Below, one piece after another: positions 9,131 through 57,548 of a stretch of DNA of 64,000 nt. Source of the stretch: Isurus oxyrinchus (lineage: Eukaryota); NCBI GenBank assembly GCA_026770705.1, contig JANJGN010000102.1:434001-498000 (forward strand). Direction: 5' to 3'. The notes below the pieces were generated by a model, which was given only the letters and a program-made list of their open reading frames with translations, was not told where the DNA came from and made no database searches. The translations under genes and the position numbers were made by a program. Each line of letters starts with the position of its first letter. Positions within the stretch are counted from its first letter, which is position 1.

Positions 9131-9160
9131 CTTATACCGTGTCCTTTGTCAAGCCATCTC
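9131..9160 (-). pseudogene. WB: WB last coding exon
   Basis: ttctgtcttccag| GA GAT GGC TTG ACA AAG GAC ACG GTA TAA G |GTGAGT = GDGLTKDTV*, with a donor 1 nt after the stop. Confidence 0.7.
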
Positions 9161-11235: not shown

Positions 11236-11325
11236 CTGAAGTTGCACTGGAGGCTGAGGTGTTCGAATGCATGCTGGTCTGAGTGCGGTTCGACTTCCGC
11301 TGCTGTTGATTTTTCCAGAAAAGCA
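11236..11325 (-). pseudogene. WB: WB cytoplasmic exon 2 (Ser/Thr-rich)
   Basis: ttccctacag| ... G|GTAATG; 90 nt, phase 1-1. VLFWKNQQQRKSNRTQTSMHSNTSASSATS resembles the paralogous exon at 2746-2832. Confidence 0.72.
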
Positions 11326-11437
11326 CTGTAGGGAAGCAAGAGTGACCAAGAGCTTTTGTGAATATAAGTGAGGTTCTCGCCATGTCGATGCCCGCGGTCA
11401 TTTCTTTTTTTGTGTGTGTTTGTGTATTTACACTTAC

Positions 11438-11467
11438 CTTTTAGTCCAGGGATTCGGGGTTGGTAGC
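11438..11467 (-). pseudogene. WB: WB cytoplasmic exon 1
   Basis: ttccctttcag| GC TAC CAA CCC CGA ATC CCT GGA CTA AAA G |GTAAGT = (G)YQPRIPGLK; 30 nt, phase 1-1, strong splice sites. Confidence 0.75.
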
Positions 11468-13155: not shown

Positions 13156-13266
13156 CTTGACGTTTCATTCGAAAAACAGCTCCAGTTACGGCAGTCAGGA
13201 TGCCACTAATTCCGAACAATATTCCAACAATGGCCGCAGCAGACAGTGAGCTCTTACGTTGGGGGT
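13156..13266 (-). pseudogene. WB: WB connecting peptide/TM exon (frame intact)
   Basis: Acceptor ttttggaag|, donor G|GTACGG, 111 nt (the class II beta TM exon size). DPQRKSSLSAAAIVGILFGISGILTAVTGAVFRMKRQ carries the beta-chain GxxxxxxGxxxxxxG motif. Confidence 0.88.
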
Positions 13267-13439: not shown

Positions 13440-13782
13440 ACCCCATCAAACACTCCCAGGACAGGTACAGCATGGGATTAGATACAGATTAAAGCTCCCC
13501 CTACATTGTCCCCATCAAACACTCTCTGGACAGGTACAGCACGGGGTTAGATACAGAGTAAAGCTCCCTCTACACTGTCCCCATCAAACACTCCCAGGAC
13601 AGATACAGCACGGGGTTAGATACAGAGTAAAGCTCCCTCTACACTGTCCCCATCAAACACTCCCAGGACAGATACAGCACGGGGTTAGATACAGAGTAAA
13701 GCTCCCTCTACACTGTCCCCATCAAACACTCCCAGGACAGGTACAGCACGGGGTTAGATACAGAGTAAAGCTCCCTCTACAC
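13440..13782 (+). repeat. 69-bp minisatellite (resumes at 16595-16731 after the Penelope insertion)
   Basis: Unit ctctacactgtccccatcaaacactcccaggacaggtacagcacggggttagatacagagtaaagctcc. Confidence 0.95.
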
Positions 13783-16594
13783 CAAAGCTTCCTCTAGGAC
13801 CCTCCACCCCAGCCTGTCCCTCCGTCCCCACCCCATCTTCCAATCCCAGCCCCAGCCGTGTATTCACTATACCCCCTGACCTTCCCCTCTCCGATGCTGA
13901 ACGTTCAGTGCTCAGCAAAGGACTTAGTTTCATACCCTTACGCCCTCACCTCAATGAATTTCGGGCTCGGCATGATACTGAACTCTTCTTTCGCCGTCTT
14001 CGTCTCCGGGCTCACTTCTTTGGGCAGGAGTCCTCTCCCAGTTCAACGGATCCTTTTACCCATCTCCAATATTCTCCCTCCACCTGGACCCCTCCCTCTG
14101 GATTCTTACCTTCTCTTGATCTTTTCATTGAGAACTGTCGGCGCGACATTAGTCGTCTCAATTTCTCTGCTCCTCTCACCCATTCTAACCTGTCTCTCTC
14201 TGAACTTACTGCACTCCATTCTCTCAGGTCCAACCCTGACATTGTCATCAAACCCGCTGACAAGGGTGGTGCTGTTGTTGTCTGGCGCACTGACCTCTAC
14301 CTCGCGGAGGCTGAGCGTCAACTCGCAGACACTTCCTCCTACCTCTCCCTGGACCATGACCCCACCACTGAACATCAAGCCATTGTTTCCAGGACTGTCA
14401 CTGACCTCATCTCCTCTGGGGATCTCCCTCCCACAGCTTCCAACCTGATAGTCGCCCAACCTCGGACGGCCCGCTTCTATCTCCTACCTAAAATCCACAA
14501 ACAGAACTGCCCCGGTAGACCGATCGTCTCAGCTTGCTCCTGCCCCACAGAACTCATTTCTCGTTATCTTGACTCCCTTCTCTCTCCCCTTGTCCAGGCC
14601 CTTCCCACCTACATCCGTGATTCCTCTGACACCTTACGTCACATCAACAATTTCCAGTTCCCTGGCTCCAACCGCTTCCTCTTCACCATGGACGTCCAAT
14701 CCCTCTACACCTCCATCCCCCACCAGGATGGTCTGAGGGCCCTTAGCTTCTTCCTCGAACAGAGGCCCGAACAATCCCCATCCACCACTACTCTCCTCCG
14801 TCTGGCTGAACTTGTTCTCACGTTGAACAATTTCTCCTTCAACTCCTCTCACTTTCTCCAAATAAAAGGTGTGGCTATGGGTACCCGCATGGGCCCCAGC
14901 TATGCCTGTCTCTTTATGGGATATGTGGAACATTCCTTGTTGCAGTCCTACCCCGGCCCCCTTCCACAACTTTTTCTCCGGTACATCGATGATTACTTCG
15001 GTGCCGCTTCGTGCTCTCGTCGGGACTTGGAAAAATTTATTAATTTTGCTTCCAATCTCCACCCTTCCATCATTTTCACGTGGTCCATCTCTGACACTTC
15101 CCTTCCCTTCCTTGACCTCTCTGTCTCAATCTCTGGTGATAGACTGTCCACTAATATCCATTACAAACCCACCGACTCCCACAGCTACCTCGACTACAGC
15201 TCCTCACACCCCGCTTCCTGTAAGGACTCCATCCCATTCTCCCAGTTCCTTCGCCTTCGTCGCATCTGTTCCGATGATGCTACCTTCAAAAACGGTTCCT
15301 CTGACATGTCCTCCTTCTTCCTTAACCGAGGTTTTCCACCGACGGTCGTTGACAGGGCCCTCAACCGTGTCCGGCCCATCTCCCGCGCATCCGCCCTCAC
15401 GCCTTCTCCTCCCTCCCAGAAACATGATAGGGTCCCCCTTGTCCTCACTTATCACCCCACCAGCCTCCGCATTCAAAGGATCATCCTCCGCCATTTCCGC
15501 CAACTCCAGCATGATGACACCACCAAACACATCTTCCCTTCACCCCCCTTATCGGCATTCCGTAGGGATCGCTCCCTCCGGGACACCCTGGTCCACTCCT
15601 CCATCACCCCCTACTCCTCAACCCCCTCCTATGGCACCACCCCATGCCCACGCAAAAGATGTAACACCTGCCCCTTCACTTCCTCTCTCCTCACCGTCCA
15701 AGGGCCCAAACACTCCTTTCAAGTGAAGCAGCATTTCACTTGCATTTCCCCCAACTTAGTCTACTGCATTCGTTGCTCCCAATGTGGTCTCCTCTACATT
15801 GGAGAGACCAAACGTAAACTGGGCGACCGCTTTGCAGAACACCTGCGGTCTGTCCGCAAGAATGACCCAAACCTCCCTGTCGCTTGCCATTTTAACACTC
15901 CACCCTGCTCTCTTGCCCACATGTCTGTCCTTGGCTTACTGCATTGTTCCAGTGAAGCCCAACGCAAACTGGAGGAACAACACCTCATCTTCCTACTAGG
16001 CACCTTACAGCCTTCCGGTCTGAATATTGAATTCAATAACTTTAGGTCGTGAGCTCCCTCCCCCATCCCCACCCCCTTTCTGTTTCCCCCTTTTTTTTCC
16101 CCCTTTTTTTTCCCTATAAATTTTATAGATTTTTCTTTTCCCACCTATTTCCATTATTTTTAAATATTTTAAAATCTTTTATGCTCCCCCCACCCCCACT
16201 AGAGCTGTACCTTGAGTGCCCTACCATCCATTCTTAATTAGCACATTCGTTTAGATAATATCACCAACTTTAACTTTAACACCTATGTGTTCTTTTGTCC
16301 CATTGTCACTGACATCTTTTGATGATCTGCTTCTATCACAGCTTGTTTGTCTACACAAGCACCTCTGTCTCTCTCTCTCTCTCCGCCACCCCCCCCCCCG
16401 CCCGCCCCACACACCTTAAACCAGCTTATATTTCAACTCTTTCCTGGACTCGAAATCAAGTTCTGTCGAAGGGTCATGAAGACTCGAAACGTCAACTCTT
16501 TTCTTCTCCGCCGATGCTGCCAGACCTGCTGAGTTTTTCCAGGTAATTCTGTTTTTGTTTTGGATTTCCAGCATCCGCAGTTTCCTTTGTTTTA
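13783..16594 (+). mobile_element. Penelope-like retroelement, 5'-truncated, young
   Basis: Uninterrupted RT + GIY-YIG ORF and 3' terminal region. CCTCTACAC is duplicated at 13774-13782 and 16595-16603. Confidence 0.93.
13908..16052 (+). CDS. Penelope-type reverse transcriptase with GIY-YIG endonuclease
   Basis: IKPADKGGAVV, LPKIHK, RPIVS, MDVQSLYT, GVAMG, RYIDD; C-terminal NLVYCIRC..CGLLYIGETKR.L..RF.EH. The listed start is a GTG, and the frame continues to the truncation point. Confidence 0.93.
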   Translation: MLSKGLSFIPLRPHLNEFRARHDTELFFRRLRLRAHFFGQESSPSSTDPFTHLQYSPSTWTPPSGFLPSLDLFIENCRRDISRLNFSAPLTHSNLSLSELTALHSLRSNPDIVIKPADKGGAVVVWRTDLYLAEAERQLADTSSYLSLDHDPTTEHQAIVSRTVTDLISSGDLPPTASNLIVAQPRTARFYLLPKIHKQNCPGRPIVSACSCPTELISRYLDSLLSPLVQALPTYIRDSSDTLRHINNFQFPGSNRFLFTMDVQSLYTSIPHQDGLRALSFFLEQRPEQSPSTTTLLRLAELVLTLNNFSFNSSHFLQIKGVAMGTRMGPSYACLFMGYVEHSLLQSYPGPLPQLFLRYIDDYFGAASCSRRDLEKFINFASNLHPSIIFTWSISDTSLPFLDLSVSISGDRLSTNIHYKPTDSHSYLDYSSSHPASCKDSIPFSQFLRLRRICSDDATFKNGSSDMSSFFLNRGFPPTVVDRALNRVRPISRASALTPSPPSQKHDRVPLVLTYHPTSLRIQRIILRHFRQLQHDDTTKHIFPSPPLSAFRRDRSLRDTLVHSSITPYSSTPSYGTTPCPRKRCNTCPFTSSLLTVQGPKHSFQVKQHFTCISPNLVYCIRCSQCGLLYIGETKRKLGDRFAEHLRSVRKNDPNLPVACHFNTPPCSLAHMSVLGLLHCSSEAQRKLEEQHLIFLLGTLQPSGLNIEFNNFRS

Positions 16595-16855: not shown

Positions 16856-17126
16856 CCCAGTTGGTGCGGTGTCCATCTGGAAAAGTGACATGCTCCACAA
16901 AGCACGTGTACATGTCCTCTGTCTTGGGGTCAATGTTGATGAATGCAGCCGTCTGGAAGGCCTTCTCACTGTTGGGAAGGATCTGAGTCTGTACCACTTG
17001 CTCGTCAATGTTCCCATCATTTTTTAGCCAGGGCGCTTGGATCGAAGCCGGCGACTGTACACTGAAGTTGGCTGGAATGGTCAAAGTCTTCCAGATCGTA
17101 GAAGGAGATGGTCACTGAAGGGGACG
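16856..17126 (-). pseudogene. WB: WB beta2 Ig C1-set exon with a frameshifting deletion
   Basis: Acceptor ccattctcag|, donor TGG G|GTAGG. Frame A reads SPSVTISFYDLEDFDHSSQLQCTVAGFDPSA; frame B reads WLKNDGNIDEQVVQTQILPNSEKAFQTAAFINIDPKTEDMYTCFVEHVTFPDGHRTNW. Length 271 nt, 11 short of the usual 282-nt beta2 exon. Confidence 0.88.
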
Positions 17127-17264
17127 CTGAGAATGGACAGGGTTATTTTCAATTCAGCACTCCCTCTCACACCTGCTCCCAATATTTCCTCCAAGCCCGT
17201 CTCCCACTCTCACTGGGCTACTGCCTCCAAGGACAGTGACTGTTCTCTGCTACTTACCTTCATT

Positions 17265-18020
17265 AGGAACACAGGAACATGAGGAGGCCCATTCAGCCCC
17301 TCCTCGAGCTTGTAACACAAGAACAGGAGGAGGCCCATTCAGACCCTCCTCAAGCCTGTTACACAGGAACCAGAGGAGGCCCATTCAGCCCCTCGAGCCT
17401 ATTACACAGGAACAGGACAAGGCTCATTCAGTCCGTCATGAAGCCTGTTGCACAGGAACAGGAGGAGACCCATTCACCCCCTCCTTAAGCCTGTTACACA
17501 GGAACGGGGGAAGCCATTCAGCCTCCATTTCGAGCCTGTTACACAGGAACAGGAGGAGGCCATTCAGCCCCTCTCGAGTCTGTTATACAGGAACAGGATG
17601 TGGCCATTCTGCCACCTCTTGAGTCTGTTACACAGGAACAGGAAGAGTCCAGCCCCCTTCTCGAGCCTGTTACACAGGAACAGGAGGAGGCCATTCAGCC
17701 CCTCTCGAGTCTGTTATACAGGAACAGGAGGTGGCCATTCTGCCACCTCTTGAGTCTGTTACACAGGAACAGGAAGAGTCCAGCCCCCTTCTCGAGCCTG
17801 TTACACAGGAACAGGAGGAGGCCATTCAGCCCCTTTCGAGTCTGTTATACAGGAACAGGAGGTGGCCATTCTGCCACCTCTTGAGTCTGTTACACATGAA
17901 CAGGAAGAGTCCAGCCCCCTTCTCGAGCCTGTTACACAGGAACAGGAGGAGGCTATTCAGACCCCTCTTGAGCCTCTAACACAGTAACAAAAAAGAGGCC
18001 ATTCTGCATCCTCATGCCTA
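17265..18020 (+). repeat. About 43-bp minisatellite with a 131-bp higher-order unit (also about 23545-23865)
   Basis: Unit acacaggaacaggaggaggccattcagcccctcgagcctgtt. Confidence 0.9.
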
Positions 18021-18499
18021 TTGCGCCATTCAATGAGGTCATAGCTCTTCTGTGACCTAACTTCACATACCCGCCTTCGCCTCATATCCCTTAACACCTC
18101 TGGCTTGAAAAAAATCTCTCAATCTCTCTTTTAGAATTAAGAATCGGTGCAGCATTAAATCGCCATTTATGAGAGAGTCCCAAGCTCTCTATCACACTTT
18201 ACGTGTGGAATTCCCAGGTCTAGAGACACGTGAGGCAGTCAAAGCACAAGCTTCGGTCGGTTTCCATAGCCAGTTTCTCCTGCAACAGGTTGCAGGAGGC
18301 TATAGCTCGAGGACTGCCTCTCCACATCAAGCACTCCTCACCAGGAGACCCTCGTGCCTGCCAAAGGCATAGTGGAAGGATTGACAGGTCATTAATCAAC
18401 TAGCCTGGCCTTGTTATTGTTTATTGCAAGGGGAATTGAATACAAAAGGAGGGAGGTTATGCTTCAGTTGTGCAGGGCACTGGGGAGACCACACCTTGA

Positions 18500-21400
18500 G
18501 ATCTTGCTGTGCACGGCACCACTGTCACATCGGTTGAGGGTAGCAGTGTTCGCTGCCGAAGGAATCAAGCTGTGTGCGAGTGAGAGGCACGCTGAGCCTG
18601 ATGAGCAGGCGGTGGGAGGAGGACGGGGAAGTGTGGGAGGGCACGTGTCTCTGCGCGCTGTTTAGGGAGCTTCTCCCAACTGTCGCACGTCTTATTGCTT
18701 CCTCGCAGACGCTGAGGAGCATGACAGTGACACTTCCGTCAGCCTTAGCCAACTGGCAAAAAAAACATGTCACGTGGTGAGGGAATGGAAAGATTCTGGA
18801 TTTATTGCATAGGATGAGGCCAGCCAGCACAATTGGATATTTTCCATACATTCAACAGACCCAGAGCTCTGAGATGCAGAGGAATCAGGGTGTCCCAGTG
18901 CATGAATCACATAGTAGGCAGGTACAGCAAGTCATAAGGAAAGCTAATTGAATGTTATCGTTTATTGTGAGCTGAATTGAACGGAAAAGTAGGGAGGTTA
19001 TGCTTCAGTTGTACAGGGCACTGGTGAGACCACATTTGAAGTACTGTGTACAGTATTGGTCACCTTATTTAAGGAAGGATGTAAATACATCAGAAGCGGT
19101 TCAGAGAAGGTTTACCAGACTAATACCAGGAATGGGCGGGTTGTCTAATGAGGAAAGGTTGGCTAGGCTTGTATCCGCTGGAGTTTAGAAGAGTAAGAGG
19201 TGACTTGATTGAATCCTTTAAGATCCTGAGGGGTCTTGACAGGCTGGATGTGGAGAGAATGTTTCCTCTTGTGGGAGAATCTAGAAGCAGGGGGGTCACT
19301 GTTTAAAAATAAGGGGTCACCCATTTAAGAAAGAGATAAGGAGAAATTTATTCTCTCAGAGGGTTGTGAGTCTTTGGAACTCTCTTCCTCCATAGGTGGT
19401 GGAAGCAGAGTCTTTGAATATTTTTAAGGCAGAGGTGTATAGATTCTTGATAAGCAAGGGGGTGAAAGGTTGGTGGGAATGTGGGGTTGAGGTTACAATC
19501 GGATCAGCCATGATCTTATTGAATGGCAGAGCAGGTTTGAGGGGCTGAGTGGCCTACACCTGCCCTGAATTTGTACGTTCAATACCAGTGTACCTTCGTT
19601 GGCCATCAAGTCCTGTGGTGTAGTATGGACACTACACGCTGCACCACTGGACCTGCTCTTTGTGTATAGGAATCTTTCCTCATTTCACTCCTGAAAGATC
19701 TGCCTCTCACTTTTTAGACTCTGCCCCGTCATCCCAGACTCCCCCAACTTCAATCAAATCACCCCCTGAACTTTGTAGCATTGGAGGCGGTACAGTGAAG
19801 GTTCTCGAGATTGGTCCCTGGGATGAGGGGGGTTGTCCTATGGTGAGAGGCTGAGTAAATTGGTCCGATATTCTCTAGGGTTTAGAAGAATGAGAGGCGA
19901 TCTCATTGAGACATACAAAATTCTGAAGGGGTTTGACAGGGTGGACACAGAGAGATCATTTCCACTGCTCGGGGAATCTAAAACACGGGGGCACAGTCTC
20001 AGGCTAAGGGGCTGATCGTTTCGGACTGAGATGAGAAGTTTCTTCACTCAAACGGTTGTGACTCTTTGGAACTCTCTCCGCCAGAGGGTTGTGGATGCTC
20101 CATTGTTGAAGACATTTAAGGCTGGGATGGACGGATGTTTGGTCTCTCAGGGAACTGAGGGGAGCAGGTGGGATAATGGAGTTGAAGCCCAAGATCAGCC
20201 ATGATCATATTGAATGGCGGGCCAGGCTTAATGGGCCAAATGGTCCACTCCTGCTCCCATTTTTTGTGTTTTTGTGAATAATATTCTAGAGCAGGAACCG
20301 TCATTGAATGCCCAGCCTCCCACAGGCCATGAATGCTGAAAGGAGTTCCAGTAATAGTTCACACCAACCCAATTTGGGGTCCGCTAAAACGGTGCAGTCC
20401 TGGGATCAGGGACACTTCACAGCAATGCTTTTAACCGCAGGTACTTTAAGAGAATTAAATAGGGCTAAGAAAGTGCAATGACTTCATCGCATTGACAAGC
20501 TCTTCACATCCATATATCCCTACTGTGGCTACAAGCGCAGGTCTGAGGCTGGGAATCCCACGGTGACTACTAACTCACCTCCTGACTCCCCAAAGCCTGT
20601 CCACCATCTACAAGTCAGGAGTGTGATGGAATACTCCCCACTTGCCTGGATGAGTCTAGCTCCAACAACACTCAAGAAGCTCGACACCGTCCAGGGCAAA
20701 GCAGCCCCGCTTGATCAGCACTCTATCCACCAACATTCACTCCCTCCACCACTGACACACAGTAATAGCAGTGCGTATCATCTCTTGCTCCAACTGGACA
20801 GGGCGTTAGTGAGGCTGCACCTGGAGTACTGTGTCAGCTTACTTAAGGGGGGATAGACTCACACTGGAGGCCCTTCAGAGAAGGTTCACTCAGCTGATTC
20901 CTGGGATGAAGGGGGTTTGTCTTATGGGGAAAGGTTCAGCAGGTTGGGCCTGTACCCATTGGAGTTTAGAAGAATGAGAGGTGATCTTATTGAAACATAT
21001 CACTGTCGCTGGGTCAAAATCCTGGAAACCCCCTTCCCAAACATCACAGTGGGTGTACCTACACCACACAGACTGCAGCGGCTCAAGAAGGCGGCTCCCC
21101 ACCACCTTCTCAAGGGGCAATTAGGGATGGGCAACAAATGCTGCGCTTGGCCAGCGATGCCCACATCCCGTGAATGAGTGAAAATAAAGAAATTAAGTGA
21201 CCTGCATTTTACGAGCTGCCTAATCTGATCTCTCAAAAAAAAATACCCCGGCACACTACAAAACTGTTCTTGGCTTGCAATTGTTAAACTTCCCACAGCC
21301 AGTGGAACAGAAGTCAGTCTTAGATTTTTTCACAAAGTGAGACATTATAAATGTACAGCTTCAGACTCGACTACCCAGTGTCTCTTTTGAGCACAATAAA

Positions 21401-22400
21401 CAACTAATTAAACAAATTAACTAATTAACAGCCCCTGAAAGGGGCACTGTAACAGAAAAATCCCCAAAAATTTAGGTTAATACTCCTGGGGCTGATGACA
21501 CGCTCCAGCCCCTGTGGCTGTTGAATCTCAATCTCCTGGCTGAGACACGGGGAAGCTACCCACCCGCTTCACAAGATCACCAATGCCACCTTGCACTCTT
21601 TTAAGTAACCATTAAAAATTAAACCAATTAACAAGTAAACTAAAAGACAGGTTAATGGGGCACTGTCACAAAAAGACAAAACTTTAATGAAAAGTTAGCA
21701 ACTTAAATTAAAATGTCATTTCCGTGGCTGATGAGGCACTCCAGACCCCGTGGTGCCCACTGGCTACAGAAGGCCTCAAGCGCAACGGGCAGAAAGTGCC
21801 TCTTTGTACGTGCTCGAATAATCATTCAACCAACGCCCTCTGCTTCTATATACTTAAGCTTAATTTACACAATTAACAACTAGAGCAGTGCATTCAATCC
21901 TGGTTGCCACACTTGAGGAAGGATGTGAAGGTCTGTGAGCGGGTGAGGAGGGGGGTTTACCAGAAAAGCTCCAGGGATGAGGGATCTGTAGCTCCAGGGT
22001 TAGGTTGGAGAAGCTGGGGTTGTTCTCCTTGGAGCAAAGGAGAGATTTGGTAGAGGTGCACGAGGCTAGGACAGGTTTGGATAAGATAGACAAGGAAAAG
22101 CCATTCCCATTAGCCGACAGTACAGGAATTGGGGAGGGACACAGTTTGAAGGTTCTGGGCGAAGAGGGGATGCGAGGAGGAGCTTTATCGCGCAGCAAGC
22201 AGTAACAGCCTGGAACTCGCTGCCCACAAGGGTAGTGGAAGGGGAGATGAATGGTTTCGAATGGAAATTGGACAGTTTTCTTGAGGGAAATAAACTCGCA
22301 AGGGCTCGAGGGAGAGTGCGGGTGGAATGGGACTGATGGGATTGCTTTACAGAGAGATTGCATGGAGTAGATAGACCGAGAAGTCTCCTTCTGTGCTTTA
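18500..22400. mobile_element. Mosaic of CR1 and other LINE fragments in a WB intron
   Basis: Repeated CR1 ORF2 C-terminal motifs at 19000, 19833, 20917 and 22005. Confidence 0.75.
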
Positions 22401-24120
22401 ATGATTATATGGCTTCACTTTCAGTGTGTTAATTTGAGGAGCAGTGGCTACTGCAGGGGCAGTCAAAGCACTGGGTAAAGTCCCCATACAGAAGCCAGGC
22501 CACTGACCGATTGACCGGTCTTCGTTGGGTCAAATCGTGACCTGCCCTCAAAGAAAATGACACTTAACTGTTCTCGTAAGGGAACTACAGGAATTTTTAA
22601 GTCAACATGAATAAACGGTTAGGGTCTTGAATAAACAGGGGTTCCCAGGAGAGTGTGACAGTATGCACAGGGGTCCCCGAGGGACTGTGTCAGTATTTAC
22701 AGGGGGTCCCCGAGGGGTGTGTCAGTATTTACAGGTGGTCCCGGGGAGTATGTCAGTATTTACAGGGGGTCCCCGAGGGGTGTGTCAGTATTTACAGGGG
22801 GTCCCGGGGAGTATGTCAGTATTTACAGGGGGTCCCGGGGAGCATGTCAGTATTTACAGGGGGTCCCGGGGAGTGTGTCAGTGTTTACAGGGGGTCCCGG
22901 GGTGTGTGTCAGTATTTACAGGGGGTCCCGGGGAATGTGTCAGCTGCTGCACTGATTGCATATGGGAAATAACATTACCGAGAGGAGGCATGTTCGAGCA
23001 CCCACTCCAACTGGGGGACACCAAAGTGCATAAATCACAGAGGTGTCACGCGAGTTTGACAAATCCTCCACCAAATCCAAAGGCTTCTCAAGAGTCCTTA
23101 AGAAAACAGCCTTTGAGTTCAGGATCACTGCTTCTGGCAATGAAAGAACAGGCCTGCTAGTATCGGTTGAATCTCAGCACAGTTAATTATTTGAGAAATG
23201 TCATCACCTTAGTTTCAGTGACAGTGGATTTGATTTGTGTTTTCAGCCTTGCTCGGGCGCAAAGAGTTCCTGGTTAGGCTCATTTGAGATTAATCACACC
23301 TCTTATGTAAAGACTCTTATGTAATTCTCTCTGGCAGCATGATACGATGCTGTGCAATTCCAAGAATTCCCCATATCTAATCCTGCACATCTGAGGGGTT
23401 TTTTTGGGCAGTCTACCTGACCTCTGCAGGGTGCATCAGCTCGGATCAGAGTTGTGGTTGTGGGGTTTAGTTGTGTTAAGCTGTCTTGTTCCTGTAAAGG
23501 TACGGGAACTGCCTGTGGGGAAGTGGTCCAGATGGAGTTAAAAAGGAACAGGAGGAGAACATTCAGCCCCTCACGAGCATGATACACAGGAACAGGAAGA
23601 GGCTATTCAGCACCTCTTGAGCCTGTTGCACAGGAACAGGAGAATGCCATTCAGCCCCTCTTAAGCCTGTTTCTCAGGAACAGAAGCAGGGCATTCAGCT
23701 CCATTCGAGCCTTTTTCACAGAAACGGTAGGAGGCCATTCAGCCCCTCTCGGGCCTGTTGCATAGGAACAGGAGGAGGCCATTGAGCACCAACACCCCCT
23801 GCCTCACACCAGCCTGTTATACATAAACAGGAGGAGGCCATCCAGCCCTCTCGAGCCTATTATGCCTGGGGGAGGAATCTGTCTCTTGGCCTCGCGCAGC
23901 TGCTTGTGGGACCTTGCTGTGCGCAAAGAAGCTAAGGTGGTAACAGCAGTGACTGCAGTCCAGAAATCGTCCATGGGCTACAAAATGTGTTGGGACGTCC
24001 TGAGGTGGGAGGGGGGCAAGGGGGTGAGGTGAAAGTGTCAGTTGAGGAAGGCTCCTGACTCCCCCACCCCGCTTAAACCGACGTTTCAAATCCTGACACT
24101 CCCCCTAACCCCCTCCCGCC

Positions 24121-24214
24121 TCACATCAGTGAATTGACAGCTTTCTCATCCATGGCATAAACGGAGTAATCTGATCCGTCACAGACACAATGCAGTTCCT
24201 GTAAGGAAGTGGAT
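24121..24214 (-). pseudogene. WB: WB: probable truncated 5' part of the beta1 exon
   Basis: Acceptor ctgttctttcag| followed, one base out of phase, by LQELHCVCDGSDYSVYAMDEKAVNSLM* and then unrelated G-rich sequence. Position and early Cys fit a beta1 start. Confidence 0.5.
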
Positions 24215-24683
24215 CTGAAAGAACAGAGGTGTGAGGAGTCCCCTGTCTGAGATGGGGGCGGGGGTGGGGTGGGGGGGGGGGGGGGGGGGGGGGGTTGGTG
24301 GGGGGCTGGGAGTTAAAAATAAAATATTACCCAACTTCATCAGAACTGTGAGCTGCTTTGCGGTCAACCTCCTGTTTTGAGAAGAGTGGAACTGATTTTG
24401 CAGGGGTCAGCACAGACAGCTGAGCTCACAGCGCTGACACGTGCTTGCTCTCTGACAATTTATTTACCCAGCCATAAACAGAGATGCTGGGCATCTCCTG
24501 AATAAATGCAGGAGAGCAGAAGGCGTTCTCTTGCACACTCTTAATGTCACTGAGCTGTTTTGTGGCTTTTGCCAGTTGTAGTTGCATCTGAGGAAGGAAT
24601 GATTTGTTGAGAGTGAGAGAGGGAGAGAGAGGTAGAGAGAGATAAGTCGTGAGCAGGAAAGAGCGACTTTAACTTGCTGGAAC

Positions 24684-24768
24684 ATGGGCTGTCCAAGGCA
24701 AAAAAATAAAGCTGGTTTTCTCTGCGCATTGCTGTTAGCATGGCTGTTGGGCTCCGCGATAGAATGTG
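24684..24768 (+). CDS. WA: MHC W-category alpha chain (WA), exon 1: signal peptide
   Basis: ATG at 24684 reads MGCPRQKNKAGFLCALLLAWLLGSAIEC (basic N-region, hydrophobic core). Ends in a phase-1 donor G|GTAAG, as MHC leader exons do. Confidence 0.85.
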
Positions 24769-24874
24769 GTAAGATGATGATTTTAATCGATTCTTTAACT
24801 CTTTTTAACCCAATGTTAGGTTGGGGCGATGTCAGAGGAAGAATGTGAAATATTTACACACTTCTGTTACATTG

Positions 24875-25545
24875 AACATTCCCAGGGCACATACAGCATG
24901 ACGTTAGATACAGAGTAAAGCCCCCTCTACATTGTCCCCATTAGACAGTCCCAGGACAGGTACAGCATGGGATTAGATACAGATTAAAGCTCCCTCTACA
25001 CTGTCCCCATCAAACACTCCCAGGACAGATACAGCACGGGGTTAGATACAGAGTAAAGCTCCCTCTACACTGTCCCCATCAAACACTCCCAGGACAGATA
25101 CAGCACGGGGTTAGATACAGAGTAAAGCTCCCTCTACACTGTCCCCATCAAACACTCCCAGGACAGGTACAGCACGGGGTTAGATACAGAGTAAAGCTCC
25201 CTCTACACTGTCCCCATCAAACACTCCCAGGACAGGTACAGCACGGGGTAGATACAGAGTAAAGCTCCCTCTACACCATCCCCATCAAACAATCCCAGGA
25301 CAGGTACAGCACGGGATTAGACACAGAGTAAAGCTCCCCCTACACTGTCCCCATCAAACACTCCCAGGACAGGTACAGCACGAGGTTAGATACAGAGTAA
25401 AGCTCCCTCTACACCGTCCCCATCAAACACTCCCAGGACAGGTACAGCACAGAGTTAGATACTGAGTAAAGCTCCCTCTACACTGTCCCCATCAAACACT
25501 CCCAGGACAGGTACAACACAGGGTTAGATACAGGGTAAAGCCATC
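24875..25545 (+). repeat. 69-bp minisatellite array
   Basis: About 9-10 units. Confidence 0.95.
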
Positions 25546-29320: not shown

Positions 29321-30786
29321 CGACAGCATTACTGCCTTGGCTCTGGACCATTCCTGGCTTTTTCAGAGTCCCTTACTTATGCTTGTGTGTTTATTTTCTA
29401 TTCCTTCTTGGGATGTAAGTGTTGCTGGCGAACCGGCATTTGCTGCCCACCCCAAATTGCTTCTTGAACTGAGTGTCTCACTAGAGCCACTTCAGAGGGG
29501 CCAATTAAGAGTCAGCCACATTGCTGTGGGCCTGGAGTCACATGTAGGCCAGACTGGGTAAGGATGGCAGATTTCCTTACCTGAAGGGACAGTGAACCAG
29601 ATGGGGTTTTTACACCAATCCAGTAATCTCATGATTATATCAGCTTTTTAAATTCTGGGTTTATTAATGAATTTCATTTACATTTCCCCAGCTGCCATGG
29701 TGGGATTTGAATTCATGGGCAGGATTTTTTGAATGGGTCCCGCGCCATCACCCACAGAGTCAATGGGGACACTACCTCGCTGATCCTGGCAGCCGTTGAA
29801 CACTCCATGAGGCTTTCGTTGTCTAAGTTTGAGGCCATTGCCTCACCACCACCCCCATCCCCCGCCCCCACCCACCCCCCCCCCACCCCACCCCAAACCT
29901 GGGGAGGGGGAGCCATCGTAAGAGAGCTGCTGGTTAACCTGATTGGCTGACAGAACTATAGTCCCAGCAGCGCCACGTTTGAGCGGTGCCCACTGCTAAG
30001 GCTACAGCCAGTCCTCGAAGAGGAGGTTATGAAGGCCGGTGTTTTTTTATTCTTTCATGGGATGTGGGCATCGCTGGCTAGACCAGCAACTATTGCCACC
30101 CCCTATTGACCTTGAGAAGGTGGTGGTGAGCCGCCTTCTTGAACTACTGCAATCCCTGTGCTGTAGGTACACCCACAGCACTACTAGGGAGGGAGTTCCA
30201 GGATTTTGACCCAGCGACAGTGGAGGAACGGCTGATGTATTTCCATGTCAGATGGTGAGTGGGTCGGAGGGGAGCTCACAGGCGGTAGTGTTCCCATGTG
30301 TCTGCTGCCTTTGTCCTTCTAAGTAGTAGTGGTCGCGTGTTTGGGCGGTACTGTCACAGGAGCCTTGGTGAGTTGCTGCAGTGCATCTTGTCGATGGTAC
30401 ACACACTGCTGCCCCTGTGTGTTGGAGGGAGTGAATGTTAAAGGTGTGGATGAGGTGTCGAACAAGCAGGGCTGCTTTGTCTTGGATGATGCCCATGGAG
30501 TGGCCAGGTAAAGAGCCTCAACAGGTCCAGGGGGCCCCACACCTCCACTGCCCCCCTCCCACCACCCCCACCCCCACCACCCCCCCACCCCCCTCCATAA
30601 GATAAGAGACAGCTCGGAGTGGGTGGGTACGTGGCAGACAGGCCACTTGCTGCATATCACCAGCAGTGCCACCGGGTTCGCAAGTGGGGGGGAACCATAA
30701 AACCATGGCTCTGGATTATGAGCCCAATGACATCCACAGTAAGTTACCATCCCCTGAAGCTGATCCCAATTATTTTTCACTTCTAG

Positions 30787-31035
30787 CAGAGCAAAGAGTG
30801 CGGGGGATGATTTTCAGCGTCTCTGACAGCCGGACCTCCATCGTCACCTCGACCACTGATGACATGACCCTCGCCTACCATAACAGCACCGAGTCCAACT
30901 TTGTGTTCCTTATCGAGGCGCTGAATGCGCTCCATGCTGAGTCAAACAATCTCATCCAGAAATACCAGAGCTATCTGACATTGAATGAAATCTTTCTCAA
31001 CGAAATGGCGAACCGCATCCCGGAGAAACAAAACG
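30787..31035 (+). CDS. WA: WA exon 2: alpha1 (membrane-distal) domain
   Basis: Acceptor ttttcacttctag| (NAGNAG alternative at 30790), phase 1-1, 249 nt, donor G|GTAAT. Reads AEQRVRGMIFSVSDSRTSIVTSTTDDMTLAYHNSTESNFVFLIEALNALHAESNNLIQKYQSYLTLNEIFLNEMANRIPEKQN. TTDDMTLAYHNS resembles the MHC alpha1 VDDxxFVxFDS segment. Confidence 0.85.
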
Positions 31036-32482: not shown

Positions 32483-32761
32483 ACGACCCCATAGTGTTGC
32501 TTTATCCGGGTGAACCCTTCACCTTAGGGGGGAAGAACACCCTGAATTGTTTTGTGAGTCATCTGTTTCCGCCAGTGGCCCATGTGTCCTTCCTGAAGAA
32601 CGATCAGCCCCTATCTGGGCAAGTGAGGTCCTCGCAGTTCACCTTCGACAACAGCTGGACGTTTCAAATCTTGAAATATGTGCAAATTGAGCCTGCTGTC
32701 GGGGACAACTATTCGTGTGTGGTGGAGCTAGTCACCAAGGAGCAGTTCCAAGCCTACTGGG
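32483..32761 (+). CDS. WA: WA exon 3: alpha2 Ig C1-set domain with beta-2-microglobulin-like residues
   Basis: Acceptor ccttccag|, 279 nt, phase 1-1. Reads DDPIVLLYPGEPFTLGGKNTLNCFVSHLFPPVAHVSFLKNDQPLSGQVRSSQFTFDNSWTFQILKYVQIEPAVGDNYSCVVELVTKEQFQAYW. Two Ig cysteines; FTFDNSWTF parallels b2m LSFSKDWSF; VSFLKN lacks the canonical C-strand Trp. Confidence 0.92.
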
Positions 32762-37276: not shown

Positions 37277-37401
37277 AGGCAACGGCATCAGACAATCATA
37301 AAAACCCAGTACAGATTGCAATCTGCACAGTCGGCTTTGTGATTGGTGCCCTGGGGATGATGACTGGCCTCTGCCTGATTTTCTACAAGCGGGGAAATGA
37401 G
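37277..37401 (+). CDS. WA: WA exon 4: connecting peptide and transmembrane segment
   Basis: Acceptor tttacag|, donor GAG|GTAAAT (phase 0). EATASDNHKNPVQIAICTVGFVIGALGMMTGLCLIFYKRGNE carries the class II alpha-chain TM motif CxxGxxxGxxGxxxG. Confidence 0.9.
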
Positions 37402-39949: not shown

Positions 39950-40078
39950 GTGGGGTCCAGGGATCAGCAAACCATACCTGCGGAGGAGCCACAGGACTCG
40001 ATGCTGAATGGAGAAGGGGCACAAGATGAAGGGACCCGTGTGGATCGGAGTGATCCAAACCAACCAGCAGAATGTTGA
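39950..40078 (+). CDS. WA: WA probable exon 5: cytoplasmic tail
   Basis: Acceptor cttttgtcacaaacaag|, phase 0 matches exon 4. 129 nt open to TGA: VGSRDQQTIPAEEPQDSMLNGEGAQDEGTRVDRSDPNQPAEC*. No homology check was possible. Confidence 0.55.
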   Translation: MGSRDQQTIPAEEPQDSMLNGEGAQDEGTRVDRSDPNQPAEC

Positions 40079-53139: not shown

Positions 53140-54985
53140 GATACACACACTCTGTCTCTCTCTCTCACGCACACTCTCTCTGATGCATACACACACACTC
53201 TCATACACACACACACTCTCTCTCTCACATACACACACACACTCACACACTCTCTCACATACNNNNNNNNNNNNNNNNNNNNNNNNNNNNNNNNNNNNNN
53301 NNNNNNNNNNNNNNNNNNNNNNNNNNNNNNNNNNNNNNNNNNNNNNNNNNNNNNNNNNNNNNNNNNNNNNNNNNNNNNNNNNNNNNNNNNNNNNNNNNNN
53401 NNNNNNNNNNNNNNNNNNNNNNNNNNNNNNNNNNNNNNNNNNNNNNNNNNNNNNNNNNNNNNNNNNNNNNNNNNNNNNNNNNNNNNNNNNNNNNNNNNNN
53501 NNNNNNNNNNNNNNNNNNNNNNNNNNNNNNNNNNNNNNNNNNNNNNNNNNNNNNNNNNNNNNNNNCTCTCTCACATTCGCACTCTCGCTAACACACACAC
53601 TCTCTCTCACATACACACTCTTTCATACACATACATGTACACTCACAAATATTTGCACATGCGCGCATACACACACTGATGCACACATGCACACAGAAAG
53701 GCACACACATAGACACAGTCACATGCACACTTGCACACACAGCCACACATCTCAGCACACAAGTGCACATACATGCACACACACTCACTTGCACACACAG
53801 CCACACATCTCAGCACACGCACATGCACATACACGCACATACATTTGCACAGACACAGCCACTCACACACGCACTCTCAAACACATTCACCCTCACACAA
53901 CACACGCACATGTGCATGCACATACAGTCACTCTGACACATACACACAGTCATTCTCTCACACACACACACAATCTCACAACCATTTGCACATGCATGCA
54001 CACACACACACACACACATACACTCGCACACACAAAGACACAGGCATGTGCACACTTGCACATACAGCCACATATCTCAGCACAGAAACACATGCACACA
54101 CTCACTCACTCACTTACACACACACACAGCCACACACAGGCTCTCAAACACATTCACTCACACACACTCAAACACACATTTACACACACACACATACACA
54201 CACATACACAGTCACACACACAAACACTGTCACACACACCCAGTCACTCACACACCCACTCACACACATTCTCACAAACACTTACCCCCAGTCACTCACA
54301 CACACATTCCCAGTCACTCTCTCACACACACATCCCCACTCTCACACACCCACAGTCACTCGCTCACACACACACACATCCCCACAGACTCACACACACA
54401 CTCTCACAAACATTTGCACATGTGCGCATACACACACATACACAGATGCACATGTGCACACACAGAGGCACACACATATACAGTCACATGCACACTCGCA
54501 CACATATGCACATCTCAGCACACAAACACACACATGCACATACAGACACACACACTCACTTGCACACACAACACACACACACACAGCAACACACTCTCAA
54601 ACACATATTCACTCACACACACTCACCACAAACACACACGCACACTTGCGCACACCCAGTCACACACACACACACCCAGTCACTCGCACATGTGCGCATG
54701 CACACACACTTGCATGTGTACACATATGTGCACACACGCATAGACACATGCATTCTTACACACAGATGCACATCTCACCTCCCAGCACATGTGCACATGC
54801 GTACACACACACACTCACTTGCACACACAGCCACACGCTCATACACATGCATACTCTCAAACACATTCACTCAAACACACGCATACACACTCACCACACA
54901 AACACATGCACGCACATACACACACACGTACATACACAAACACTCACTTGCACACACAGCCACATATACAAACGCGCACGCAGAC
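53140..54985. repeat. CA/CT-rich low-complexity tract containing an assembly gap (N at 53263-53565)
   Basis: Seen directly. Confidence 0.95.
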
Positions 54986-57236: not shown

Positions 57237-57548
57237 GCTATCACTCCACGGCAAATCTGTTACGCCAAGCTCGAGCTCCCTGCCTCCCGTGACCACCGAG
57301 GCAGGAAGTTGACCAAGACGCAATATACCGAGACCCTGAACATGTTGAAGAAAAGCAGGATGGACAGAAAGGAGCAGCAGGGGGCCTCGAAGATCCAGGC
57401 TGACAGCTCTCTGAGCAGGACTGTGCCCCAATTCCTGGCCAGTCAGGACCTGGAGCACTCCGAACTTTACGCCTCAGTCTGCCTGGACCAGCGAGAGGGC
57501 AAGGGGCGGAGTGAGGAGTACGCGAACAAGGAAAGCCTTAAAATTTAA
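57237..57548 (+). CDS. SIT1: SIT1-like last exon with four tyrosine motifs
   Basis: cttcccacag| phase 0. ICYAKL, TQYTET, ELYASVC and EEYANK are colinear with mammalian SIT1 MCYTSL, VKYSEV, ELYASVC and QAYANS. Spliced CDS is 621 nt (206 aa). Confidence 0.9.
   Translation, partial: AITPRQICYAKLELPASRDHRGRKLTKTQYTETLNMLKKSRMDRKEQQGASKIQADSSLSRTVPQFLASQDLEHSELYASVCLDQREGKGRSEEYANKESLKI

Follow-up and report, generated by a model that had tools for sequence, protein, structure and literature searches.

Whether a W-category alpha gene (WA) and the beta gene (WB) lying head-to-head with it are driven from one compact, shared promoter is the question raised by this locus. The DNA analyzed, here called the window, is a stretch of 64,000 nt from Isurus oxyrinchus (contig JANJGN010000102.1, positions 434,001–498,000 of the forward strand; assembly GCA_026770705.1). 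In the initial annotation a putative WB beta1 acceptor at position 24214 on the minus strand lay only 470 bp from the WA ATG at 24684 on the plus strand, and the WB leader, its first intron and both promoters would have had to fit into that gap. The data below indicate that the window probably holds a head-to-head pair of lamnid type in which an intact, spliced WA gene of the Nds3L type faces a dead WB gene of the DS3L type. From one start codon to the other the distance is 1,693 bp, an interval that contains no Y box, and the beta chain is likely supplied by a duplicate of the pair. The 470-bp dual promoter is not a real feature, and the window contains a known kind of W-category pair.

An intact WA gene and its probable spliced transcript

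The WA ATG at 24684 was borne out and opens an intact gene of five coding exons on the plus strand, with canonical splice sites, intron phases of 1,1,1,0 and an 867-nt open frame encoding 288 residues. The coding part of exon 1 (24684–24768), specifying the signal peptide, was located by a tblastn match to P0012 and P0015, two white shark proteins, combined with a splice check, and is closed by the phase-1 donor GTAAGA; alignment of three probable RNA contigs ends exactly at 24768. The alpha1 exon (30787–31035) agrees with the row for white shark WA Nds3L in Okamura Dataset S1, the alpha2 Ig-C1 exon (32483–32761) was recognized as Pfam C1-set (E 3e-16) and follows the numbering of Dataset S2, and the exons for the connecting peptide and TM region (37277–37401) and for the cytoplasmic tail with its stop codon (39950–40078) were placed by tblastn and splice check. 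The product has the class II-type chain plan of leader, membrane-distal domain, Ig-C1 domain, TM region and cytoplasmic tail. Read against the Nds3L row of Dataset S2, its alpha2 domain carries the W-category beta2m-like residues Y8, F37, F57 and W61, and position 55 is F rather than L, as in the published white shark Nds3L. Identity amounts to 279 of 288 residues with both P0012 and P0015 and to 248 of 281 with basking shark P0018. At the alpha1 exon a tandem CTAG/CAG acceptor (30784–30790, plus strand) corresponds to the 288- and 287-residue isoforms in RefSeq.

Read evidence consisted of contigs from four of the 20 listed runs, namely X1, X5 and X7 (probable RNA) and X16 (DNA of organism B). 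The X1, X5 and X7 contigs are unstranded, their RNA label is a guess, none of the 20 runs being recorded as RNA, and they give neither strand nor start. Contigs from all three leave the genomic alignment at the WA donor 24768 and run on, indicating that they are spliced. The X1 contig (1,083 nt) covers 24443–24768 with no differences in 326 nt and continues for a further 757 nt, and the contigs from X7 and X5 reach upstream to 24498 and 24575, respectively. Together they define a WA 5′ leader (24443–24683) that measures 241 nt or more in its longest form, from X1. This form may be minor or poorly translated, and the transcribed WA copy could be an identical one elsewhere. The GA-rich tract assigned to the promoter gap at about 24608–24642 is indeed present (24609–24642), but the WA contigs of X1, X5 and X7 all span it and it is therefore part of the transcribed WA leader rather than of a promoter. 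No contig of these three runs covers 23952–24420, a gap that carries no weight as evidence. A reading of the X1 contig as an antisense WB exon was dropped, there being no loose letters at 24443.

The longest leader holds four short out-of-frame uORFs (24484–24610, plus strand; 5, 12, 15 and 3 codons), about as many as expected by chance, the third of which is lost in organism B (24545 T>C). A short palindrome at 24480–24496 inside the leader and a 15-nt inverted repeat (87%) at 24340–24437, just upstream of the WA 5′ end, are both probably chance occurrences.

WB is a pseudogene of the DS3 lineage

The divergent orientation of the pair was confirmed, WA reading on the plus strand from 24684 and WB on the minus strand from 22991. 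A search with the WB beta2 domain led to one cluster, represented by P0001, a DS3-lineage WB. Nine of 11 residues at the N-terminus of P0001 agree with 22991–22959, which places a WB-DS3L leader remnant at 22942–22991; its ATG is the one at 22991, and another ATG follows at 22961. The tblastn match taken alone is weak (E 0.5–1). The identity of the leader was settled by a 144-nt X7 contig that follows 23015–22942 with three differences and an extra base and then continues in other letters exactly where P0001 continues with Leu. The remnant has lost 1 nt behind 22958, after which the next frame reads ISAAA to 22942, and it is broken after the third Ala codon (22942), the sequence then passing straight into a 31-bp minisatellite (22635–22943) found by repeat scan.

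A WB beta1 exon is absent from the window. The beta2 exon (16856–17126, 271 nt), identified by tblastn and the Dataset S2 row, carries an 11-nt deletion, with CCTG microhomology at the deletion, that produces a frameshift and an immediate stop; in the shifted frame P57 and K61 (non-W61) are read, as in white shark DS3L. The connecting peptide/TM exon (13156–13266), two cytoplasmic exons (11438–11467 and 11236–11352) and the last coding exon with its stop (9132–9160) follow on the minus strand, all located by tblastn. With its leader broken, its beta1 exon absent and its beta2 exon frameshifted, WB is a pseudogene of the DS3 lineage.

A second acceptor near 11325 in the WB cytoplasmic exon at 11236–11352 fits the shorter RefSeq isoforms. 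The beta2–TM intron carries on the opposite strand (13758–16052, plus) an open frame of 764 codons for a reverse transcriptase that has a GIY-YIG-like endonuclease at its C-terminus, presumably a Penelope-like element.

Promoter elements between the start codons

The two start codons (WB 22991, minus; WA 24684, plus) are separated by 1,693 bp. The "extremely compact" architecture of 470 bp rested on a mis-assigned exon, the WB coding start lying elsewhere than had been supposed. Bidirectional promoters have starts less than about 1 kb apart, and CpG-island character is typical of them. The interval lacks such character: CpG o/e was 0.15–0.40 in nine of ten 200-nt segments and 0.65 in that containing WA exon 1, against 0.35 for the whole window.

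The failure to see an S-X-Y module in the short gap held over the true interval (22992–24683, 1,692 bp) by motif scan. None of 21 consensus promoter motifs was clearly enriched relative to 200 shuffles, the lowest P being 0.05 for the X1 motif at three mismatches, with three of the five X1 matches lying inside a 44-bp tandem repeat (23544–23787, repeat scan). CCAAT/ATTGG did not occur on either strand of 22992–24683 (shuffle mean 3.9), nor did an ISRE, an exact kB site or a TATA box, and the RUNX-, E-box-, ETS- and GATA-like sites present were not enriched. X-Y composites numbered none at 0–1 mismatches (null mean 0.57 at up to one) and two at two mismatches (null mean 3.7), these counts referring to a consensus of mammalian origin, applied without a positive control from shark, and to a geometry taken from the GLAM2 alignment in the PMC4381081 supplement. 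An Rfam search of 22900–24900 returned two matches far below the gathering score, taken as chance.

From this sequence content it would be a fair inference that the pair is regulated by something other than the CIITA enhanceosome. The proposal of a bidirectional promoter unlike those of classical class II genes survives to the extent that a divergent pair exists with neither a Y box nor an X-Y module between its start codons; its compact layout does not, and WB is a pseudogene. WA transcription would proceed from a promoter immediately 5′ of approximately 24443, poor in CpG and lacking a TATA box, and this promoter would be independent of the CIITA/RFX/NF-Y enhanceosome. The likely core-promoter zone, positioned from the WA contigs, is 24306–24442 on the plus strand. 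It has neither TATA nor CCAAT; a RUNX-like site (TGCGGT, 24359) and two E-boxes (24417 and 24438) occur in it, but these motifs showed no enrichment relative to shuffled sequence. Upstream of the WA 5′ end, repeat and motif scans also found a poly-G tract with one GGGCGG (24254–24305, plus strand). The ancestral WB start may have lain between approximately 23107 and 23950, and the WA and ancestral WB promoters would then have stood back to back, 0.5–1.3 kb apart. Contig ends set an upper bound of 1,336 bp on the distance between the mapped 5′ ends; should the low-depth pieces of X7 at 23122–23297 and 23455–23533 represent WB pre-mRNA, this bound falls to 910 bp. That the two genes shared promoter sequence, in the sense of having upstream elements in common, is conceivable, and we hold it to be somewhat doubtful.

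Evidence of a second copy and likely pairing in trans

A low-depth X1 contig over 22959–23107 differs from the window at 10 positions in 149 nt and represents a second copy of the WB-DS3L leader, 93% identical, in a run whose WA contig matches the window exactly. X7 carries an intact-type WB leader, and its WA has the C3Y change of P0012/P0015. DNA depths in X16 alternate between 82–91 and 150–170, and an X16 WA exon-1 contig shows 11 differences in 175 nt that are not common to the X7 transcript; the depth steps and this divergent contig together point to two copies. The paralogous WA exon 1 of organism B (X16 contig 15, 24634–24806) carries two additional nucleotides ahead of the ATG and a Leu-to-Pro change in the signal-peptide core (24733 T>C).

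With basking shark P0018 as outgroup, the window WA has three derived residues in common with P0012/P0015 and none with the paralogue P0016. In beta2 and TM the two white shark WB copies have two residues in common against the window, and on these residues the window WB would fit poorly as a simple orthologue of the leaderless P0007 unless gene conversion is assumed. In white shark, "WB pseudo" is listed on NW_024470715.1 beside WA XP_041037342.1 (P0012) in the available text of Suppl. Fig. S3 of Verissimo 2023 (PMC10751288). The basking shark WA and WB have consecutive accessions on one 943-kb contig and are both full length.

The pair would have been duplicated before the split of the window species from white shark, after which this copy would have lost its beta gene. 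Because surface expression of W chains in a salamander test depended on the presence of both partners, the WA alpha chain would pair with a beta chain encoded by the sister copy; the WA/WB heterodimer at the cell surface was shown for salamander proteins, according to the sections available of PMC8713811.

A more far-reaching version, in which the lamnid Nds3L/DS3L duplicates decayed reciprocally so that alpha alone survives in one and beta alone in the other and the heterodimer forms in trans, is unlikely, though some observations agree with it. The expressed WA is of the type found beside the pseudo-WB and the expressed WB leader comes from another copy; moreover, the sister WA is represented by a 187-residue RefSeq model and the sister exon 1 has Pro for Leu in its signal core. 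However, in the available portions of the Okamura datasets the WA of the sister type is complete, its alpha1, alpha2 and TM all being given in full (PMC8713811), and the gene order is known from figure text alone; the order on white shark chr35, guessed from the layout of that text, is given no weight here. Were reciprocal decay true, there would be two CIITA-independent intergenic units, each selected in one direction only, providing a natural experiment for mapping direction-specific elements of a W-gene promoter.

The 90-nt stretch at 24214 and alternative readings of WB

The stretch originally taken as a beta1 remnant (24125–24214, minus strand) is a 90-nt segment of AG..GT form without beta1 similarity. 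An acceptor-like CAG does end at 24215, 470 bp from the WA ATG, but it is not that of WB beta1. When the seven DS3 cluster members were used in tblastn, the WB beta2, TM and cytoplasmic exons were placed and nothing was placed at 24214, and a beta1 profile built from six DS3 proteins gave a best iE of 12 among 3,741 six-frame ORF fragments of the window. On a broader beta1 profile, made from the seven DS3 proteins and 22 of 150 listed representatives (short single-stretch matches covering the distal domain), the candidate frame scored −1.5 bits and ranked 901 of 1,572, against 22–29 bits for true 30-residue beta1 pieces; with its DS3 members removed, the broad profile is weak on 30-residue pieces (4–11 bits or unlisted). 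A Pfam search of the 24124–24234 frame returned no families, a six-frame short-motif search for DS3-type beta1 gave chance matches only, and no signal peptide was found behind any of the four minus-strand ATGs in 24215–24683. The beta1-looking frame requires a phase-2 intron, while WA introns 1–3 are all in phase 1; the phase-1 frame gives unrelated sequence and runs into a stop. The stretch also sits upstream of the true WB leader, which had been expected within the 470-bp gap and is found 1.2 kb further along, at 22991–22942. A GTRAG donor lies 50–300 nt downstream of 13 of the 43 strong minus-strand acceptors in the window, AG..GT pairs like that at 24214 being common by chance. In short, where a WB beta1 exon would resemble beta1 and follow the leader with an acceptor in phase 1, this stretch does neither, and 24125–24214 is intergenic DNA or at most a candidate 5′ UTR exon.

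As such an exon it would be non-coding, preceded by a first exon running to a donor near 24331 and spliced to an acceptor at 23010, an arrangement we consider improbable. The splice signals are plausible, with 14 of 17 pyrimidines at the acceptor and GTGAGG at the donor of the stretch, together with a donor GTAATA at 24330 and an acceptor CCCCAG at 23011, and in organism B DNA the segment 24124–24238 is one double-depth contig, apparently identical in both copies. Set against these signals are the chance frequency of AG..GT pairs given above and the X1 leader contig, which is unspliced through 23010 up to 23107. The 24124–24238 block departs from the window at three of 115 nt, as much as the adjoining segment does (six of 205), and was accordingly dropped as a candidate constrained element. 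If 24125–24214 were a WB 5′ UTR exon, the WB and WA starts would fall within approximately 100 bp of each other, making a genuinely compact bidirectional core promoter such as the initial annotation had proposed on other grounds.

An assembly artefact as the source of the WB damage, with a misjoin in the minisatellite dropping the leader end and beta1 and with sequencing errors accounting for the indels, is very improbable. The break does fall into a 31-bp minisatellite of enormous depth in shark DNA, and the assembly has at least one N gap (53263–53565), but three separate lesions would have to be explained, up to 6 kb apart and including a deletion with microhomology, and no N occurs between the leader and beta2 (17127–22941). 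One X16 contig crosses the leader–minisatellite junction with at most one mismatch, by 15 letters on the repeat side, which is short of the 31-letter bridging rule; it hints that the leader break is common to organism B. The pseudo-WB next to WA of the same type in white shark, as it appears in the available text of PMC10751288, likewise speaks for real lesions.

The original 470-bp arrangement, with 24214 as beta1 acceptor, is almost certainly wrong: one frame is loosely beta1-like, with CxC as in the Nds5L-type WB rows seen in Dataset S1 (PMC8713811), and the low sensitivity of the profile lacking DS3 members would leave room for an ancient remnant from some distant lineage, but the WB leader lies downstream of 24214, the intron phase is wrong, the minus-strand ATGs have no signal peptide and the WA leader alone fills 241 of the 470 bp, so that 229 nt, including the 52-nt poly-G run, remain between the WA 5′ end and 24214.

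Comparison with known systems

White and basking shark WA Nds3L and WB DS3L are of the same lineages and have the same exon plan and divergent orientation in the available part of PMC8713811 (RefSeq entries compared: XP_041037342, XP_041035580, XP_041035560, XP_078391008-10). The WB of the window is destroyed, whereas both basking shark genes are full length, and the leaderless white shark model XP_041035497 retains beta1, in contrast to the WB of the window. On white shark NW_024470715.1 an intact WA of the same paralogue type likewise stands next to a pseudogene WB; the presence of WA beside a pseudo-WB is thus already published for white shark in a supplementary figure, the accessible text of which leaves the lesions undescribed (PMC10751288).

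Classical class II genes with S-X-Y (CIITA/RFX/CREB/NF-Y) promoters also include alpha/beta pairs in opposite orientation, as described in the accessible parts of PMC4381081 and PMC1802633, whereas the window pair has no CCAAT/Y box or X-Y composite in its ATG-to-ATG interval. The human TAP1/LMP2 (PSMB9) genes are likewise divergent immune genes with a TATA-less promoter, a 593-bp bidirectional one for which activity in both directions, driven by GC boxes and NF-kB, is shown in the available text of PMC2191963; in contrast, the gap in the window may span as much as 1.3 kb, is poor in CpG and holds a single GC box and no exact kB site or ISRE, and one of the two genes is dead. Many non-classical MHC genes are without SXY, opossum class I genes providing examples in the part of PMC1351924 consulted. 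The missing Y box across the true interval is a small but usable datum, pointing to a W pair that is not of CIITA type; with half of the pair a pseudogene, the locus is a poor model for co-regulation. The word "promoter" is absent from the main text of Okamura as available (PMC8713811), and a literature search, with most subscription papers outside its reach, found no study of a W-gene promoter. Tissue expression is named as the first step for W genes in a commentary by Kaufman (PMC8812513).

Other features of the window

Another WB pseudogene, belonging to DS1, lies at 623–706, 1941–2044 and 2746–2832 on the plus strand, tail-to-tail with the DS3L pseudogene. It comprises a beta2 fragment with a frameshift and a stop, and TM and cytoplasmic exons nearly identical to those of white shark WB DS1-like. 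The only N gap of the window (53263–53565) falls within a CA-rich low-complexity array. Four tyrosine motifs (YAKL, YTET, YASV and YANK) are encoded by a terminal exon at 57237–57548 (plus strand), for which the Atlas gave PF15330 at 0.84 as a lead only; we take it to be likely that this exon belongs to a SIT1/TRAT1-type adaptor. SIT1 is named beside the sawfish W cluster in the available text of Verissimo 2023 (PMC10751288).
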